The position numbers were made by a program, and so were the translations under genes. The notes beneath the pieces are model-generated. The model was not told where the DNA came from. It did not search any database and was given only the letters and a program-made list of their open reading frames with translations. Below, in pieces: positions 20,344 through 57,489 of a stretch of 59,084 nt of DNA. The stretch lies in the IMG/VR virus record IMGVR_UViG_2703718809_000006; one strand, given 5' to 3'. Position 1 is the stretch's first letter, and each line of letters opens with the position of its first letter. The stretch is from a virus. Taxonomy: Duplodnaviria; Heunggongvirae; Uroviricota; Caudoviricetes.

Positions 20344-21205
20344 TCAGGTGGTTCCTTGTCAAATGTAAAGGTGCACTTGCTCACGTTGACGTAGAAACCC
20401 AACCCCTATATAGTTGGATTCGGTGAATGAAAGTCGTTAACGTGAGCTTACGGCACATGTTTTCGGAAAAACATCAGGGAACGGCTAATTCCTTGATGCG
20501 GGTGGGGTCTGTAATGCAGACCCTATCTATTAACGTCATGATTGCATCTCAAATTTTCTCCTTATCTTCAATTAATCTACATTCATTTCATCTGTTAGCC
20601 ACCACAATATGTAGAAAATGGCCCTCTTGCAAGTGCATAACTTTGTGGATAACTCAGGAAGGAAAAAGTGGCTTTCGCGCACCTTCGGTCAGACAAGGTG
20701 TCCGGGAAAGTCAACGCAAAGAAAAAAATTGTTAAAAATAACGTTTGTTGGAATTGTATATTTCTATCCCCTTCAATGGTTAGCATTCTATTAACATCTT
20801 TTTTTAGAGACAGAAAAACATATCGTAACAACATATATACAGTATTAAGAGGCGAGTATTATCCTGCGGTGGGAATTCTGGGTGCTGTTAGATTCGACTT
20901 TCTCAGCAGGATTACATCGTCAACTTGCGACGTTGCCGTATGACTTTCGTGTAATAGGTGACAATGATGCGGCTAGTGAGTTACTTGTGAAGTTTTTCGG
21001 AAAAGGTTTTGTGGCCTCGGATCTTGATGAGCTACAGCAACATGAAGTGTCTAATTTGATTTTTAGCCATAGCCAATAAGCCTCCCTCCTCCATCAAGGC
21101 CACAATTTGTGACCTTAAACAATTTGTTTTCTGCTTTTTCTTATTTGAGGAAATAACGTTGTTGACAGCTAATAGGCTCGTTGTTGTTATACATGCCTGT
21201 ATAGA

Positions 21206-42258: not shown

Positions 42259-44989
<2,731 letters not shown>

Positions 44990-44994
44990 CCACC

Positions 44995-45027
44995 AAAAAT
45001 AACCCCGGCAGCTGCCGGGGTTCTCGT
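44995..45027. terminator. Bidirectional rho-independent terminator
   Basis: AACCCCGGCAGCTGCCGGGGTT flanked by A-run and T-rich sequence. Confidence 0.7.
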
Positions 45028-45033
45028 TAACTA

Positions 45034-45288
45034 TTATCGCCTTCGTGCCATATATTTGCGCACCGCGCGGCGTGGACAATCTGAAGCGGTTTCTTTCTGC
45101 TGCATCAATCTCGCAGCCATGCTCAAAAATGTCAGGCACAGCCGAAGCCCGGCATACAATAGCGGTTCCAGTGGCCACGTCTCATTGAGCACATATACCG
45201 CCATGAAAATCGAGTCAAAAACTATCGCCGCCAGCGATAACTTCATTGTCGAAAGTCGGCGGAGCTGCCGGAGTTTATTCATTGACAA
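45034..45288 (-). CDS. Two-TM small membrane protein downstream of lyz (holin/antiholin-like, LydD-like)
   Basis: 84 aa with two hydrophobic segments; overlaps the lyz 3' end. Confidence 0.4.
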   Translation of the reverse strand: MSMNKLRQLRRLSTMKLSLAAIVFDSIFMAVYVLNETWPLEPLLYAGLRLCLTFLSMAARLMQQKETASDCPRRAVRKYMARRR

Positions 45289-45832
45289 GCCCCGTCAGGC
45301 AAAGCTGGCGTTCTTTTTCACGGCGAATCTTTAAACCTCGCAGGGGCACGCCGTTACTGTTCACGAAATCAGGGAGATGGTTACACATATTCACCCATTC
45401 CCCTTTCTGCGCCCACTTGTGGATGGACGTTTCTACTCGCATGCCTCGCGCTTTGCTGTAGTAGGTCCGTAAGCTATTGCATCCCATATTGAATGCCGCG
45501 CTTGTCATTGCACTGAAGGCATTATCGGGCATGTCTTTGCCCCGGAAGTGCTGATTAATACAGCGTTCAGCGATCAGGATATTCTTTTCCCAATCAGCGG
45601 CGATTTGCTGGTCGGTTTTTCGCACACCCGGCGTTACCCCGTGTGTATTACCGATCCCGTCAGTCCATACCCCCGCCGGGCACATGTATGGATCACGTCG
45701 GCAACCTTCAGCGTTACCAATCAGCTCAAGCCCCGCCTGGTTGGTTCGCACATTGCCATTACCCATCACGATGGTAATCATCACCGCGATAGCGCAAATT
45801 GCACCGCCTCCTGCGGCTGTTTTTCCCTTCAT
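45275..45832 (-). CDS. lyz: SAR endolysin (P1 Lyz-type lysozyme)
   Basis: 185 aa from the internal ATG; N-terminal Gly/Ala-rich signal-anchor 'MKGKTAAGGGAICAIAVMITIVMG'. Confidence 0.85.
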   Translation of the reverse strand: MKGKTAAGGGAICAIAVMITIVMGNGNVRTNQAGLELIGNAEGCRRDPYMCPAGVWTDGIGNTHGVTPGVRKTDQQIAADWEKNILIAERCINQHFRGKDMPDNAFSAMTSAAFNMGCNSLRTYYSKARGMRVETSIHKWAQKGEWVNMCNHLPDFVNSNGVPLRGLKIRREKERQLCLTGLVNE

Positions 45833-45965
45833 AAAGACCTCATAAGCGAATTTTTTACGCTCCAGGACAAACACCCATTCACAGCCAATACCGACTGACT
45901 CGATCCCTTTAGAAGGCACAGGATAATGCAAATCACTTGTTAGCTACGTTTCAAAGATATACATT

Positions 45966-45982
45966 ATTGCTCTAATTAATTT
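45966..45982 (+). promoter_or_regulatory. C1-operator-like 17-mer upstream of ssb
   Basis: ATTGCTCTAATTAATTT (16/17). Confidence 0.5.
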
Positions 45983-46001
45983 ATTTTATTAGGTAAGATA
46001 A

Positions 46002-46490: not shown

Positions 46491-46738
46491 AGTTAACTTG
46501 TGAGTTATTTGTAAATAGTTCATACACAGGCCCATGTTAATACAGGGGATTTTTATTTCTAGTAACTATAAGAGGTGTTAATTATTAATTGACAATCTTT
46601 AGTGTTTCGCGCACCTTGCAAGTATCCAATATTTACTGATTGTGGACGCATAAAGAAGATCCACAGCGTTACAAATTTGTATTTCTTTCTTCAGCAATTA
46701 AGCAGGCGACTTGCTCTATCCTGCCCAAAGGAACACGT

Positions 46739-48094
46739 ATGACACACTGCAAAGAAAATACTTGGTATGAGCGTCAAGGGTACAATACCACCCGCCCGAA
46801 TGAGATAAGGTCGGAGTATGAACGTGATCTTTCCCGGTTAATCCACTCTTCCGCTTTTAGGAGATTACAATCGAAGACGCAGGTGTTGGGATTGGGCGAA
46901 AGCGATTTCTACCGTACGCGGCTAACTCACTCTATGGAAGTAGCGCAAATTGGCGGCGGTATCTTGTCTCAGTTGTCTAAGCGCGATACAGATGAGGGGG
47001 GTAAATTCTTACCTGACCCAAGCCTGATGCAGGCTATCTGCCTTGCTCATGATATAGGACATCCCCCCTTCGGTCATGGTGGTGAGGTCGCACTAAACTA
47101 CTGCATGAGATCCTATGGCGGCTTTGAAGGTAACGGGCAGACACTGCGTATACTCTCCAAACTGGATAAGTACACCGAAACCAATGGGCTGGATCCCACC
47201 CGTAGACTTATTTTAGGCGTACTGAAATATCCAGCAAGCTATTCAGAGGTCGTCAATGAGAGGGCTTACAGCCAGTTACAGCCAAGAAGCAATGAGTGGT
47301 TGTTTAAATCATCCGAATTTAAGCCCCCGAAATGTTACCTGGACTCTGAGGAGAACACTGTTAGATTCGCACTCCAACCTTTTGATAGTGATGATGTTAA
47401 GTTATTCAAAACGGTAAAAACTACCGCGTTGAATAAGCACAAGGAAACAATATATAAAGCACTGGATACAACGATTATGGACTTGGCTGATGAGATATCC
47501 TACTCACTCCATGATCTTGAAGACGCAATTTCTCTGAAGATGATCGACAAAAAAATGTGGGAGGAGCACTTCGAGGACAAATCCCATTTATTTGCAGCTT
47601 GCCAATGCGACTCGTTTAATCTAAAAGCCGATGATGTAGCTGAAAAACTGTTCGGCGAAAGTTATCTACGCAAGGAGTGCATAGGGACACTTGTTCATCT
47701 GATGATCACTAGCGTTAAGCTTGAAGTGCAGAACTCTGATTTCAAAAGTAAAATTTTACGCTATAAAGTAGCACTTCCTGCCGCGGTAGAAGAGTTACGT
47801 AAAGCCATTTTTGAGCTGGTTAGGAACAAAGTTATTCAGCACGAAAACGTCCAACTATTAGAGTTCAAAGGTCAGAAACTGATTGTGGAACTATTCAATG
47901 TACTGGCAAATGACCCAATACGTTTTCTCCCGACAGAAACTCGAAAGAAATATAATCAAGAGGAAGCAAAAGGTGATGATAAAAAAATGCGCGTCATTTG
48001 CGACTATGTTTCAGGCATGACAGATGATTACGCTACTCGACTGTATGAGAAAATATTTGTACCGAGAAAAGGCTCTATTTTTGATAGACTCTGA
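46739..48094 (+). CDS. Dgt-family dNTP triphosphohydrolase (dGTPase-like, HD domain)
   Basis: 'FRRLQSKTQV...RTRLTHSMEVAQIG' and 'HDIGHPPFGH' match the Dgt N-terminal/HD motifs; AAGGA 7 nt upstream of the ATG; AT-rich. Confidence 0.8.
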   Translation: MTHCKENTWYERQGYNTTRPNEIRSEYERDLSRLIHSSAFRRLQSKTQVLGLGESDFYRTRLTHSMEVAQIGGGILSQLSKRDTDEGGKFLPDPSLMQAICLAHDIGHPPFGHGGEVALNYCMRSYGGFEGNGQTLRILSKLDKYTETNGLDPTRRLILGVLKYPASYSEVVNERAYSQLQPRSNEWLFKSSEFKPPKCYLDSEENTVRFALQPFDSDDVKLFKTVKTTALNKHKETIYKALDTTIMDLADEISYSLHDLEDAISLKMIDKKMWEEHFEDKSHLFAACQCDSFNLKADDVAEKLFGESYLRKECIGTLVHLMITSVKLEVQNSDFKSKILRYKVALPAAVEELRKAIFELVRNKVIQHENVQLLEFKGQKLIVELFNVLANDPIRFLPTETRKKYNQEEAKGDDKKMRVICDYVSGMTDDYATRLYEKIFVPRKGSIFDRL

Positions 48095-48301: not shown

Positions 48302-48670
48302 TTATAATCTTTTAATCAGGCTCTCAATATTAGTTGGTTCAAAGTAATGCTTATTAACCTCTCCATTTATGAGGAAACCGTCTTTTAGTAGTCGGTCTAG
48401 CTCACGCTCTGCTTCTTTGTTGAACATACCTGGATATATTCTCTTGTACAACTGAAACGTACCATTCATATTCCTGTAAGCATTCTCAGCAATTTCAATG
48501 GAGATTTCATTTCCGGCGTTAAATACAGGAATGAATATCTCAAGAATATCATTCTTTAACTTCTGTTTAAGTTTCTTTTTTTCAACAATATTAGAATAAA
48601 AGATACCTAAAAAAAATGTGCAGATACCAGGAAGCCAATTATTAACGAAAACCTCAGACAAAGCGTCCAC
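48302..48670 (-). CDS. AT-rich hypothetical protein with N-terminal hydrophobic segment
   Basis: 122-aa ORF convergent with the dGTPase-like gene. Confidence 0.45.
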   Translation of the reverse strand: MDALSEVFVNNWLPGICTFFLGIFYSNIVEKKKLKQKLKNDILEIFIPVFNAGNEISIEIAENAYRNMNGTFQLYKRIYPGMFNKEAERELDRLLKDGFLINGEVNKHYFEPTNIESLIKRL

Positions 48671-52162: not shown

Positions 52163-53509
52163 CCCTGTTACGCCTTATCCAATGTGCCGCCCCCTACGCT
52201 CCTCATAGTGGGGATATAAGGCACAGTTTTCCTCCCGGCTATTTTTGCTTAAAATAGTGACATGAAACAACAGGTGTCATTCAAATTCCGGTTAAAACCA
52301 GATGGTCAACAGGAGTGTCAAATGAGGCGCTTTGCCGGAGCTTGTCGTTTCGTTTTCAACCGTGCTCTGGCGCTTCAGAATGAGAATCATGAGGCCGGTA
52401 AAAAATACATCCCTTACACGAAAATGGCTTCCTGGTTGGTTGAGTGGAAAAAAGACACTGAAACCGAATGGCTTATAGATTCTCCCTCACAGCCATTGCA
52501 ACAGTCACTGAAAGACCTTGAGCGGGCTTACAAAAACTTCTTCCAGAATCGGGCTGCTTTTCCCCGATTCAAAAAGCGGGGACAGAATGATGCATTTCGC
52601 TACCCGCAGGGCGTTAAGCTCGATCAGGAAAACAGCCGTATTTTTCTGCCGAAACTGGGCTGGATGCGCTACCGGAATAGCCGTCAGGTCACGGGAGTTG
52701 TGAAAAATGTCACTGTCAGCCAGTCCTGCGGTAAGTGGTACATCAGTATTCAGACAGAAAGTGAAATATCCACTCCGGTTCACCCTTCAGCATCAATGAT
52801 CGGGCTGGATGCTGGCGTGGCTAAACTCGCCACGCTGTCAGATGGCACAGTCTTTGAGCCTGTAAACAGTTTTCAGAAAAACCAGAAGAAGCTGGCGAGA
52901 CTTCAGCGACAGTTAAGCCGCAAGGTCAAATTCAGCAACAACTGGCAGAAGCAGAAACGCAAAATACAGCGACTGCATTTTCGTATCGCAAATATCCGCA
53001 GAGACTACCTTCATAAAGTCACAACGATCATCAGCAAAAACCACGCAATGATTGTCATTGAGGATTTGAAGGTTAAATACATGTCAAAGTCAGCGGCGGG
53101 AACGATAAGTCATCCGGGTCGCAATGTCCGGGCAAAATCAGGTTTAAACCGTTCGATACTGGATCAGGGCTGGTATGAAATGCGCCGCCAGCTTGAGTAC
53201 AAGCAGCTCTGGCGTGGCGGTCAGGTGCTTGCTGTTCCGCCAGCGTACACAAGCCAGCGTTGCGCGTGCTGTGGTCATACAGCGAAAGAAAATCGCCTGT
53301 CACAAAGTAAATTCAGATGCCAGGTATGTGGATATACAGCGAACGCCGATGTAAACGGCGCTCGTAACATTTTAGCGGCGGGGCACGCCGTACTTGCCTG
53401 TGGAGGGATGGTGCAGTCAGGCCGCCCGTTGAAGCAGGAACCCACCGAAATGATTCAGGCGACAGCCTGAACGTAGCAGGAATCCACGCCCCGAAGGGCG
53501 TGGAGGATG
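52163..53509 (+). mobile_element. IS200/IS605-family tnpB-only insertion element (IS1341-like)
   Basis: About 1.35 kb exactly filling the gap between the ddrA-like stop and the ddrB-like start; TnpB ORF plus 3' hairpin CCACGCCC-cgaa-GGGCGTGG. Confidence 0.7.
52262..53470 (+). CDS. tnpB: TnpB (OrfB) RNA-guided nuclease/transposase accessory protein
   Basis: 402 aa; RuvC-like 'GLDAGV' and 'MIVIEDLKV'; C-terminal zinc finger 'CACCGH...CQVCGY'; '[10 protein letters not shown]'. Confidence 0.85.
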
Positions 53510-55792: not shown

Positions 55793-56404
55793 TTAATTTC
55801 CTGCTTTCAGTTGCTTAAGACGGCGTTTGAGTTCGCCATTTCGGGCCTTTTCGTTATTGAGTCGGCCTGTCTCCTTATCCAGCTTCGCCCGCAAATCAGT
55901 GATCTGCTGTTGATTGAAAGACACCGAGTTCTGCGCTGATTTATAAGCGGCAACCACCTGAGCATTCCGCTGTTTTGCCTCTTGCAGGCGCTGAAAGTTG
56001 GATTTTACTGCCGGTTTCTTGTCTACCGGATTGGCAACACGTTTCGCTTTGGCGATCAGTGATTTCTGGAATTTTGCGGAGTTTTTGCGGGCCGCTTGCC
56101 CCATGACGGTACCAAGCGTCTTGATATCCGGCGACAGAGCGTTAGGAATAGCTTTTCCATTCAGCCTCACAGACGATATATCGCCAGTATCGTTTACCTG
56201 TATGGCAAGAATTTGTCCGTCGTTAAGAACCAGCTTTGCGGTTTTAACTTTAACGCCATCTTTCGTTGTTGCGCGGTTGCTGGAGTCAACCTCAATTACC
56301 GTAACACCGGTTTTATTGATCGCCGCGATAAGGGATTTCAGCCCCTTTTCATTAACCTGGTCAAAATCGACCGTTGCATACTTATTTTTCGTCATCTGAC
56401 ACAT
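55793..56404 (-). CDS. hdf: Hdf (homolog of a DarA fragment)
   Basis: 203 aa; local similarity to DarA (LNDGQILAIQ / KNSAKFQ blocks). Confidence 0.55.
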   Translation of the reverse strand: MCQMTKNKYATVDFDQVNEKGLKSLIAAINKTGVTVIEVDSSNRATTKDGVKVKTAKLVLNDGQILAIQVNDTGDISSVRLNGKAIPNALSPDIKTLGTVMGQAARKNSAKFQKSLIAKAKRVANPVDKKPAVKSNFQRLQEAKQRNAQVVAAYKSAQNSVSFNQQQITDLRAKLDKETGRLNNEKARNGELKRRLKQLKAGN

Positions 56405-56825
56405 CCTGTGCGAGATTTATTACGTAACTTCTGCGGATTTGCTGAGTAACAGGGAAAATCCGATACAACGGGTTAATGAACGAGTCGCCATGCGTAACCA
56501 TGACGTTGAAATGCCACAGTCGCTCTCCTTTACCCATATATTCAGTGGGTATGTACAACCATTCACTGTTTTCGCCCTGTTCAGCCGACGTCAAACAACG
56601 TTGTTCGCCTTCAATCACTGTCGTCGGCTTCTGAACATCGCGGATCCAATATCTGACCGTTGCGCCGCGCAAAAACGGGAATTTAGACCGGTATTTGAAC
56701 GGCACCCGGATGAAACCCGGTTTAATTTCCACATCACCAAGTTCTAAATGCGTGATGTCCTTGCGTTTTAGCAAATAGCGATCGGCTAAGGCTAACGCAA
56801 GAACGCATACACCCCAGCCAATCAT
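56382..56825 (-). CDS. lydB: LydB-like antiholin
   Basis: 147 aa downstream of the holin-like gene; size and order as in P1. Confidence 0.5.
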   Translation of the reverse strand: MIGWGVCVLALALADRYLLKRKDITHLELGDVEIKPGFIRVPFKYRSKFPFLRGATVRYWIRDVQKPTTVIEGEQRCLTSAEQGENSEWLYIPTEYMGKGERLWHFNVMVTHGDSFINPLYRIFPVTQQIRRSYVINLAQDVSDDEK

Positions 56826-57151
56826 TTCCCGCCTCCCTTTTTCACCAAACTTGTAAGAACATTCAGAATGCTATCGATATTCACTCGTTTCATCCCTGAA
56901 ATCACCTCATGACCGTTATTGCTGGCTATCGTTACCATTAAGTACGTAATTGATAACTCCCAGCCCTCGTGTTGCCCCAATAGGTACGCCACCGCGCCAG
57001 CTGTCACTGCAACAAAGATCTCCGTAACCAATCCCAACAAATTGCCAGACTGGCGACCGTCTCGGACATCCATCAGGAACGTGCCTATCCCACCAATTAC
57101 TGAAAGCAGGAGCGCAATAGCAACTGGAGCTAATTCCTGTGTGTCAAGCAC
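56822..57151 (-). CDS. lydA: LydA-like holin
   Basis: 109 aa with hydrophobic TM segments. Confidence 0.55.
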   Translation of the reverse strand: MLDTQELAPVAIALLLSVIGGIGTFLMDVRDGRQSGNLLGLVTEIFVAVTAGAVAYLLGQHEGWELSITYLMVTIASNNGHEVISGMKRVNIDSILNVLTSLVKKGGGK

Positions 57152-57225
57152 AAGTTCCCTCCTACGTTGTCAGGAGGTAATGGTATGCAAAGTAACTTCT
57201 CAACCGGTTATGTTGCATAAGAGAC

Positions 57226-57489
57226 TTACCTATTCAACCGACTTTTGGAACCTTCAATAATAAGCCTGCTATTGGCGCTGAAAATAAGAACCATGCAGCT
57301 CTGAAGGCTTTCATTCATGTCCTTATATTCCGCGAGATACATGCCAATAAAGCCAGCAAGTACGGCGGAAATACATTCGGCCAGCAATTTCTTGCATGAA
57401 GACTCGTAACGGTTTTCACATAGCCCACTCAAATACGAATACACCCCACCAAGAAGGGATAACATCACGATATGTACATAAAATGTCAT
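57226..57489 (-). CDS. Small membrane protein (holin-like, LydC-like)
   Basis: 87 aa with TM-like segments, upstream of lydA. Confidence 0.4.
   Translation of the reverse strand: MTFYVHIVMLSLLGGVYSYLSGLCENRYESSCKKLLAECISAVLAGFIGMYLAEYKDMNESLQSCMVLIFSANSRLIIEGSKSRLNR

Follow-up and report, generated by a model that had tools for sequence, protein, structure and literature searches.

The stretch of viral DNA analysed here (59,084 nucleotides, hereafter the window) carries on its minus strand, at 45034..45288, a small open reading frame (ORF) that overlaps the 3' end of an endolysin gene, and the question raised by this locus is what such a product contributes to lysis and by what mechanism. 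A preliminary description of this DNA, made from the letters alone, regarded the ORF as a candidate for a pinholin or antiholin partner of a SAR endolysin, possibly LydD of phage P1. The analysis presented below makes it very probable that the ORF is lydD, the second gene of a late lyz-lydD operon, and that its product is an 82-aa, two-helix pinholin of the inner membrane which acts together with the endolysin Lyz. The gene is one that has already been characterised, and its role as a pinholin in P1 was published before; for the window, the annotation can be settled as lydD, pinholin, with the start at 45282.

According to the ORF listing and its translation, the small ORF encodes 84 aa from a TTG start on the minus strand and reads MSMNKLRQLRR...ARRR. 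It matches, in sequence as well as in position, the annotated lydD gene of P1 (AF234172, 20078..20332); the records for LydD of P1 and P7 are AAQ13988.1, AAQ07492.1 and P1_gp014. Read from the ATG at 45282, the window protein is 100% identical to residues 1-82 of P1 and P7 LydD, and at the DNA level the window is separated from the lydD genes of P1 and P7 by one in-frame gap of 6 nt, all remaining differences being synonymous. The protein also matches the PHROG profile phrog_21930, labelled 'holin' (E 1.2e-57, profile positions 1-82 of 84); NCBIfam contains no model for LydD, LydA, LydB or LydC. Judged from these sequence comparisons, the small ORF is lydD, as the preliminary description had guessed, and the window belongs to a P1-like phage or plasmid prophage. 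The identity with LydD, the wide occurrence and the substitution pattern (see below) place the ORF far above chance expectation.

The length of 84 aa given in the preliminary description holds for the raw ORF, and the conserved product is shorter. In the raw sequence, the 5' end of the ORF reads TTG-TCA-ATG-AAT-AAA, so that the two extra codons, TTG TCA (45283..45288, minus strand), yield the 84-aa reading. The DNA alignment pairs the TTG at 45288 with TGG of P1 and with TGA of P7. For polymorphism, 86 P1-type loci were sampled, mostly from IMG/VR, which contain 37 different core alleles and 31 polymorphic sites; 28 of the loci carry the upstream TTG and 12 an in-frame TGA at this codon, as opposed to the ATG at 45282, which is retained in all 86. 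The TTG, being replaced by TGG or TGA in P1, P7 and most relatives, was rejected as a start codon, and the 84-aa reading is an accident of the window allele. Because the ATG is conserved in all loci, the coding sequence of lydD extends from the ATG at 45282 to the TAA at 45034-45036 (45034..45282, minus strand), the product is 82 aa long and the overlap with lyz is 8 nt.

The gene immediately upstream, lyz (45275..45832, minus strand), encodes 185 aa and can be identified as the P1 endolysin Lyz with a SAR-type N-terminus: its product matches the Pfam family PF00959 (Phage_lysozyme) with 80.3 bits and the PDB entries 1XJT and 1XJU over residues 1-185 (E 1.8e-128 for 1XJT), and its N-terminal membrane segment (approximately residues 6-23) is rich in Gly and Ala (best 18-aa mean Kyte-Doolittle hydropathy (KD) 2.21; G/A/S/T fraction 0.50). 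The small ORF does start inside the last codons of lyz on the same strand, given that lyz ends at 45275. The junction, read directly, is the 8-nt overlap ATGAATAA (45275..45282, minus strand), within which the lyz stop codon TAA (45275-45277) is located. It is unchanged in 86 of the 86 P1-type loci, and distant relatives likewise show overlaps of 8 or 4 nt between the lysozyme gene and the small gene; translation of lydD is probably coupled to termination of lyz through this overlap.

Between lydD and the convergent plus-strand gene pro, the 3' end of which is at 44989, lies an intrinsic terminator hairpin (AACCCCGGCAGCTGCCGGGGTT followed by ATTTTTGG; 45001..45022, minus strand). It begins 11 nt past the lydD stop codon, consists of a 9-bp stem with 7 GC pairs followed by a T run (-20.7 kcal/mol, z -3.0) and is retained in relatives, and is the predicted terminator of the lyz-lydD operon. 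On the other side of the operon, the window agrees with P1 and P7 in the alignment columns of the late promoter LPlyz (-22 box and -10), so that the promoter, carried over from the P1 annotation (20969..20987), is placed at 45920..45938 on the minus strand. The layout of P1 (AF234172) comprises prt and pro, then lydE, lydD and lyz on the opposite strand, followed by LPlyz and the divergent ssb gene with a C1 operator; P7 is arranged alike, except that lydE is not annotated there.

Farther away, the window departs from P1 in several places. Downstream of ssb, the region occupied in P1 by isaA/IS1/isaB is taken by a plus-strand gene (46640..48094) for a protein of approximately 450-484 aa with HD and HD_assoc domains, resembling a dGTP triphosphohydrolase, which may be anti-phage or nucleotide-depletion cargo. 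The adjacent ORF of 122 aa (48302..48670, minus strand) has no match in Pfam. An IS605-family OrfB/TnpB gene (52262..53470, plus strand; domains OrfB_IS605, Cas12f1-like TNB and HTH_OrfB_IS605) is inserted, relative to P1, between ddrB and ddrA, where the alignment with P1 breaks at 52178/53514.

A megablast search of positions 44900-46000 against phage records gave 19 matches, all of them P1-like (Punavirus) at 97.7-99.8% identity, and the lydD stretch occurs in 495 plasmid records from Escherichia, Salmonella, Klebsiella and Shigella. A scan of genome contigs for related loci recovered three near-identical loci only, a search of viral contigs for further related loci with one family alignment found none, and a word-index protein search retrieved only P1-type relatives with 77-85% identity (Salmonella, Klebsiella aerogenes, Enterobacteriaceae). 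Within the polymorphism sample, the changes are 31 synonymous and 3 non-synonymous in the lydD frame, against 2 and 31 in the -1 frame (that of lydE) and 5 and 28 in the +1 frame; compared with the other two frames, the 31:3 pattern indicates clear purifying selection on LydD. The preliminary description had named non-conservation as one point that would speak against its reading of the ORF; the 86 loci, the 495 plasmid records and this purifying selection show the opposite.

The P1 annotation includes in this region another ORF, lydE ('putative antiholin'), which in the window corresponds to 44969..45178 on the minus strand (GTG start, 69 aa) and lies in the -1 frame over the 3' half of lydD. 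Within the overlap with lydD, its frame accumulates approximately 1 synonymous versus approximately 19 non-synonymous changes, with a premature stop in 3 loci, and its products number 39 distinct sequences in 86 loci, with lengths of 71, 70, 69, 67, 63, 50 or 11 aa (63, 50 or 11 aa in 19 of the 86). The ORF crosses the terminator hairpin and enters pro at its 3' end; the Salmonella relative (L004) lacks this ORF, and the lydE product has no match in Pfam. Removal of lydE has no lysis phenotype (PMC9025707). On the basis of the substitution pattern, the truncations, the read-through of the terminator and the lack of a phenotype (PMC9025707; PMC10695390), lydE was rejected as an antiholin partner. 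Its frame changes in the manner of non-coding DNA, and lydE, being probably no gene, should probably not be annotated as one.

Three database proteins (P0004, P0006 and P0008) consist of the N-terminus of LydD fused to a C-terminus in the lydE frame, one of them switching exactly at a T5 run, ACATTTTTGAG (window positions about 45124-45134). Because of these fusions, a programmed -1 frameshift at ACATTTTTGAG was considered; it is not supported, given that there is no canonical slippery heptamer, that the fusions switch at different points and that each is an entry from a single contig. The three fusions are most likely indel or sequencing errors.

The two hydrophobic segments noted in the preliminary description are present, as seen in Kyte-Doolittle scans. 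Numbered from the ATG at 45282, the first predicted transmembrane segment (TMD1, LSLAAIVFDSIFMAVYVLN; residues 15-33, 45184..45240, minus strand) has a mean KD of 1.89 and contains the family-invariant Asp23, and the second (TMD2, LLYAGLRLCLTFLSMAARL; residues 41-59, 45106..45162, minus strand) has a mean KD of 1.42 and contains R47 and R58. TMD2 is amphipathic (hydrophobic moment, muH, 1.23): on a helical wheel, Y43, R47, T51, S54 and R58 all fall inside an 80-degree arc, and 12 family members all retain four of these residues (Y43, R47, T51 and R58). This polar stripe is a candidate lumen-lining or helix-helix face. Residues 1-14 carry a net charge of +5, the NETWPLEP loop one of -2 and the tail one of +6; under the positive-inside rule, this distribution predicts an N-in/C-in topology. 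By hydropathy and charge, LydD has the two hydrophobic helices and basic ends of a class II holin-like protein.

The AlphaFold2 model, built from a shallow alignment, has helices at residues 2-35 and 40-81 with low confidence (pLDDT 64.8), and a Foldseek search of this model against viral structures gave no match at E <= 0.001 (best 0.22), an outcome that is uninformative because the model is a generic helical hairpin of low confidence. A PDB profile search with the family alignment gave no match at E <= 1. Internal initiation at Met13-Lys14 could yield a shorter, less basic product; Met13 is nonetheless a doubtful candidate for a dual-start motif, as the codon has no Shine-Dalgarno-like sequence in front of it and distant relatives carry another residue here.

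The only strongly polymorphic part of the protein is its C-terminus, amino-acid variation being located mostly in the Arg tail or just upstream of it. The tail is RRR in the window (45037..45045, minus strand) and RRRRR in P1, the difference being the 6-nt in-frame gap. Among the 86 loci, 61 have RRRRR (the P1 type), 13 have RRRR through a nonsense change of CGA to TGA, 4 (the window included) have RRR through the 6-nt deletion, and the missense variants RRRKR and RRRSR are found in 4 loci each; three plasmids are 100% identical to the window across a 341-nt region. RRR is thus a minority natural allele of lydD. A natural allele with the perfect tandem CGAAGGCGAAGGCGA exists, and loss of one unit from it gives the window sequence; by this comparison, the window allele appears to have arisen by loss of one CGAAGG unit. 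The charge of the C-terminus tunes lysis timing in the S holin of phage lambda. A similar effect of Arg-tail length in LydD is plausible by this analogy, and the shortened tail would then only modulate the timing of lysis; the natural length variants provide a ready allelic series for lysis-timing studies.

The function of LydD is indicated by published experiments on the P1 and P7 protein (Bednarek et al. 2022, PMC9025707), all performed with the 84-aa RRRRR form, as distinct from the RRR allele of the window. A plasmid with lyz and lydD causes faster and fuller lysis of Escherichia coli than lyz alone, and addition of lydE to this plasmid makes no difference (PMC9025707). P1 lydA and lydA lydC mutants form plaques and the lydA lydD double mutant does not; lydD mutants lyse late in liquid culture (PMC9025707). 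When lyz is swapped for the gene of the soluble lambda endolysin R, LydD contributes nothing, and in a two-plasmid test LydD together with R gave no lysis, yet LydD reduced viable counts (PMC9025707). Wild-type P1 lysis shows the shorten-and-round morphology typical of a SAR endolysin with a pinholin, and in a lydC lydD mutant the morphology shifts to the polar rupture of canonical holins (PMC9025707). The inability to work with the soluble R endolysin identifies LydD as a pinholin, and the gene is listed as 'pinholin' in a later paper of the same laboratory (PMC10067587). In a lydA lydC mutant, LydD alone gave no lysis of E. coli in liquid culture (PMC9025707), so that its role under these conditions is accessory; likewise, a CRISPRi screen found lydD and lydE to be non-essential and lyz to be essential (PMC10695390). 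The pinholin half of the partnership suggested in the preliminary description is borne out by the genetics with Lyz (PMC9025707), and the antiholin half is not. What the window itself contributes is directly observed, namely the identity, position, conservation and two-helix, charge-polarised layout of its LydD.

Combining these lines of evidence, the following course of events can be proposed. LPlyz would drive late transcription of lyz-lydD, and lydD would be translated by coupling to the termination of lyz at ATGAATAA. LydD would build up in the cytoplasmic membrane, in the predicted N-in/C-in topology, and at a set time would form small lesions that collapse the proton-motive force, with the stripe Y43-R47-T51-S54-R58 of TMD2 possibly lining the pore. 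Depolarisation would free the membrane-tethered Lyz into the periplasm in active form, and this release is proposed to make lysis faster and more uniform. Its partners in P1 are LydA, a holin that makes large holes, the antiholin LydB and, as accessory holin, LydC. The three respective genes are present in the window, approximately 11 kb from lydD (56382..57489, minus strand), as mapped to the P1 annotation: lydB at 56382..56825, lydA, the main holin, at 56822..57151 and lydC at 57226..57489. The lydC product of the window (87 aa) is 63% identical to P1 LydC (93 aa), in a ddrA-lydC DNA segment that is 95.8% identical to P1, and looks like a divergent allele of the accessory holin.

Several other readings of the locus have to be weighed against a pinholin that acts with Lyz. 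That LydD is a canonical large-hole holin, redundant with LydA, would agree with its general class II holin anatomy, with the plain label 'holin' in PHROGs and GenBank, with the occurrence of distant relatives of the family DUF7940 (see below) in the holin slot beside soluble lambda-R-like or GH19 endolysins, and with the finding that a P1 lyz::R lydA mutant still plaqued on Enterobacter cloacae (PMC9025707); nevertheless, LydD did not support lysis with lambda R in liquid cultures of E. coli or E. cloacae or in the two-plasmid test, despite killing the cells, and the lysis morphology follows the pinholin pattern (PMC9025707), which makes this reading very improbable. Still less credible is a role of LydD as antiholin, or otherwise as a negative regulator of the release of Lyz, in which, for example, the basic N-terminus would lock the protein in an inhibitory topology in the manner of irsS21-68. 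The N-terminal net charge of +5 fits this proposal, two added positive charges suffice to turn S21-68 into an inhibitor (PMC9025707), and in distant DUF7940 cassettes a membrane-protein gene, possibly the true holin, often precedes the lysozyme gene; against this, LydD speeds Lyz-dependent lysis, its loss delays lysis and LydD alone is lethal (PMC9025707).

The other two readings concern the state of the gene and the identity of its product. The RRR allele might be weakened or non-functional, which LydA, as the main holin, would make tolerable: compared with P1, two arginines are missing from the tail, the only part of the protein to vary much, and lydD is not essential in P1 (PMC10695390). 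The deletion, however, is in frame, the other 79 residues are the same as in P1, RRR recurs in 4 of the 86 loci and in the three plasmids that match the window perfectly over the region, and tails of 3-5 basic residues all keep the C-terminus strongly positive (+6 in the window); a weakened allele is accordingly improbable, albeit the least so of these four readings. Barely any credence attaches to the proposal that LydE, or a frameshift fusion of LydD with LydE, makes up all or part of the functional product and serves as an antipinholin. The 'putative antiholin' label of lydE in P1 and the database fusions P0004, P0006 and P0008, with the switch of one of them at the T5 run, speak for it, but the lydE frame shows the ratio of about 1:19, gives 39 different products across the 86 loci, is truncated in some of them and in some interrupted by a premature stop, is missing from the Salmonella relative and reads through the operon terminator, its removal is without phenotype (PMC9025707) and it is non-essential (PMC10695390), and the fusions, as single-contig entries, fit indel errors. 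The pinholin reading remains the preferred one.

Beyond P1-like phages, LydD leads to a Pfam family of 'unknown function', DUF7940 (PF25612). LydD itself matches this family with 22.8 bits (E 1.4e-4), below the gathering cut-off of 27 bits, as does the related protein P0003 with 22.9 bits, and it has a weak match to phrog_1356, also labelled 'holin'. Searching 1.84 billion representative sequences with a profile of five LydD-type proteins recovered 14 proteins, of which P0009-P0016 were found at E values from 8e-18 to 1.5e-6. Six of these eight were scanned (70-82 aa), and all pass the DUF7940 threshold with 35.7-49.8 bits; distant relatives in this set match both holin PHROGs. P0009 is an intermediate with high scores on both sides (8e-18 to the LydD profile and 49.8 bits to DUF7940), and A20, D23, E34, Y43, R47, T51, A57 and R58 (LydD numbering) are invariant in 12 aligned sequences. 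Through these intermediates and invariant residues, LydD can be recognised as an outlying relative of DUF7940.

Gene neighbourhoods mark DUF7940 as a family of lysis-cassette membrane proteins, the gene adjoining an endolysin gene in 14 of 15 sampled loci (L088-L102). At nine loci (L088-L095 and L004), a DUF7940-type gene follows a PF00959 lysozyme gene, usually with an overlap of 4 to 13 nt; all lysozyme N-termini examined (L088-L095) have a SAR-type segment, and at those loci whose downstream ORFs were read, the next gene is a candidate for an Rz-like spanin (DUF2570, DUF2514, or an N-terminal TMD with a coiled coil). Distant DUF7940 members are also found upstream of a lambda-R-like soluble endolysin (L098 and L100-L102), downstream of a GH19 enzyme (L099) and downstream of an uncharacterised protein of 168 aa (L096 and L097). 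Since some relatives lie beside soluble endolysins, the family is not uniformly one of pinholins; it could be annotated as holin/pinholin-like. In some of the DUF7940 cassettes, a further gene for a protein with a single TMD and a coiled coil precedes the SAR lysozyme gene (L092, 2151..2480; L090, 1866..2444), and such cassettes may hold two membrane-lesion proteins, as P1 does.

LydD of the window can be compared with several known systems. The closest is LydD of P1 and P7, which is the same gene, second in the lyz operon, joined to lyz by the ATGAATAA overlap and located between lyz and the convergent pro, and differs in being 84 aa long with an RRRRR tail, as against 82 aa and RRR in the window. 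P1 LydA and LydC, likewise two-TMD, holin-like proteins, come from the same phage as LydD, act together with Lyz and are encoded in the window, but they are unrelated to LydD in sequence and belong to another operon; LydA acts as a canonical holin, for which LydB is the antiholin (PMC9025707). Typical members of DUF7940/PHROG 1356 share with LydD the length class, the two-helix layout, the invariant residues and the endolysin-gene neighbours; they are 70-74 aa long, with a K-x-I-D-N-W-R start and short, often acidic C-termini, which indicates that the Arg-rich C-terminal extension of P1 is lineage-specific.

The comparison with the prototype pinholin, S21-68 of the lambdoid phage 21 (OL657228.1), concerns mechanism. 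The S21-71 sequence used agrees in full (100% identity) with the gene that is annotated as antiholin/holin in phage 21. S21-68 and LydD have in common their small size, two TMDs, a basic C-terminus and a gene next to that of a SAR endolysin, and each is reported to support SAR endolysins only. In sequence they show no similarity: BLASTP of LydD against S21 gave no alignment at E <= 100, and a Pfam scan of LydD at E <= 1 gave nothing besides DUF7940. The gene order is endolysin then pinholin at the LydD locus and the reverse in phage 21, and the dual-start holin/antiholin gene is a feature of S21, with none evident in lydD. TMD1 of S21-68 is weakly hydrophobic, rich in Gly, Ala and Ser and SAR-like (mean KD 0.42; G/A/S/T fraction 0.67; no charged residue), whereas TMD1 of LydD is strongly hydrophobic and not SAR-like (1.89; 0.26; Asp23). 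The net charge of the N-terminus is +5 in LydD and about +1 in S21-68. TMD2 of LydD (LLYAGLRLCLTFLSMAARL), read directly, contains no G/A/S-xxx-G/A/S series of the glycine-zipper type, and the published description of LydD likewise notes a strongly basic N-terminus, with four positive charges among the 12 residues that precede TMD1, and no glycine zipper (PMC9025707). LydD thus works like a pinholin but is outside the S21 family. It is possible, though on balance doubtful, that LydD and its DUF7940 relatives represent a second, mechanistically distinct type of pinholin, in which the lesion would be formed or gated by the invariant intramembrane Asp23 together with the Tyr-Arg-Thr-Ser-Arg stripe of TMD2, and the slippage-prone Arg tail would serve as a timing dial; both helices would stay in the membrane, because TMD1 is not SAR-like and the N-terminus is strongly basic. 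If so, the characterisation of LydD in P1 would provide a function for Pfam DUF7940.
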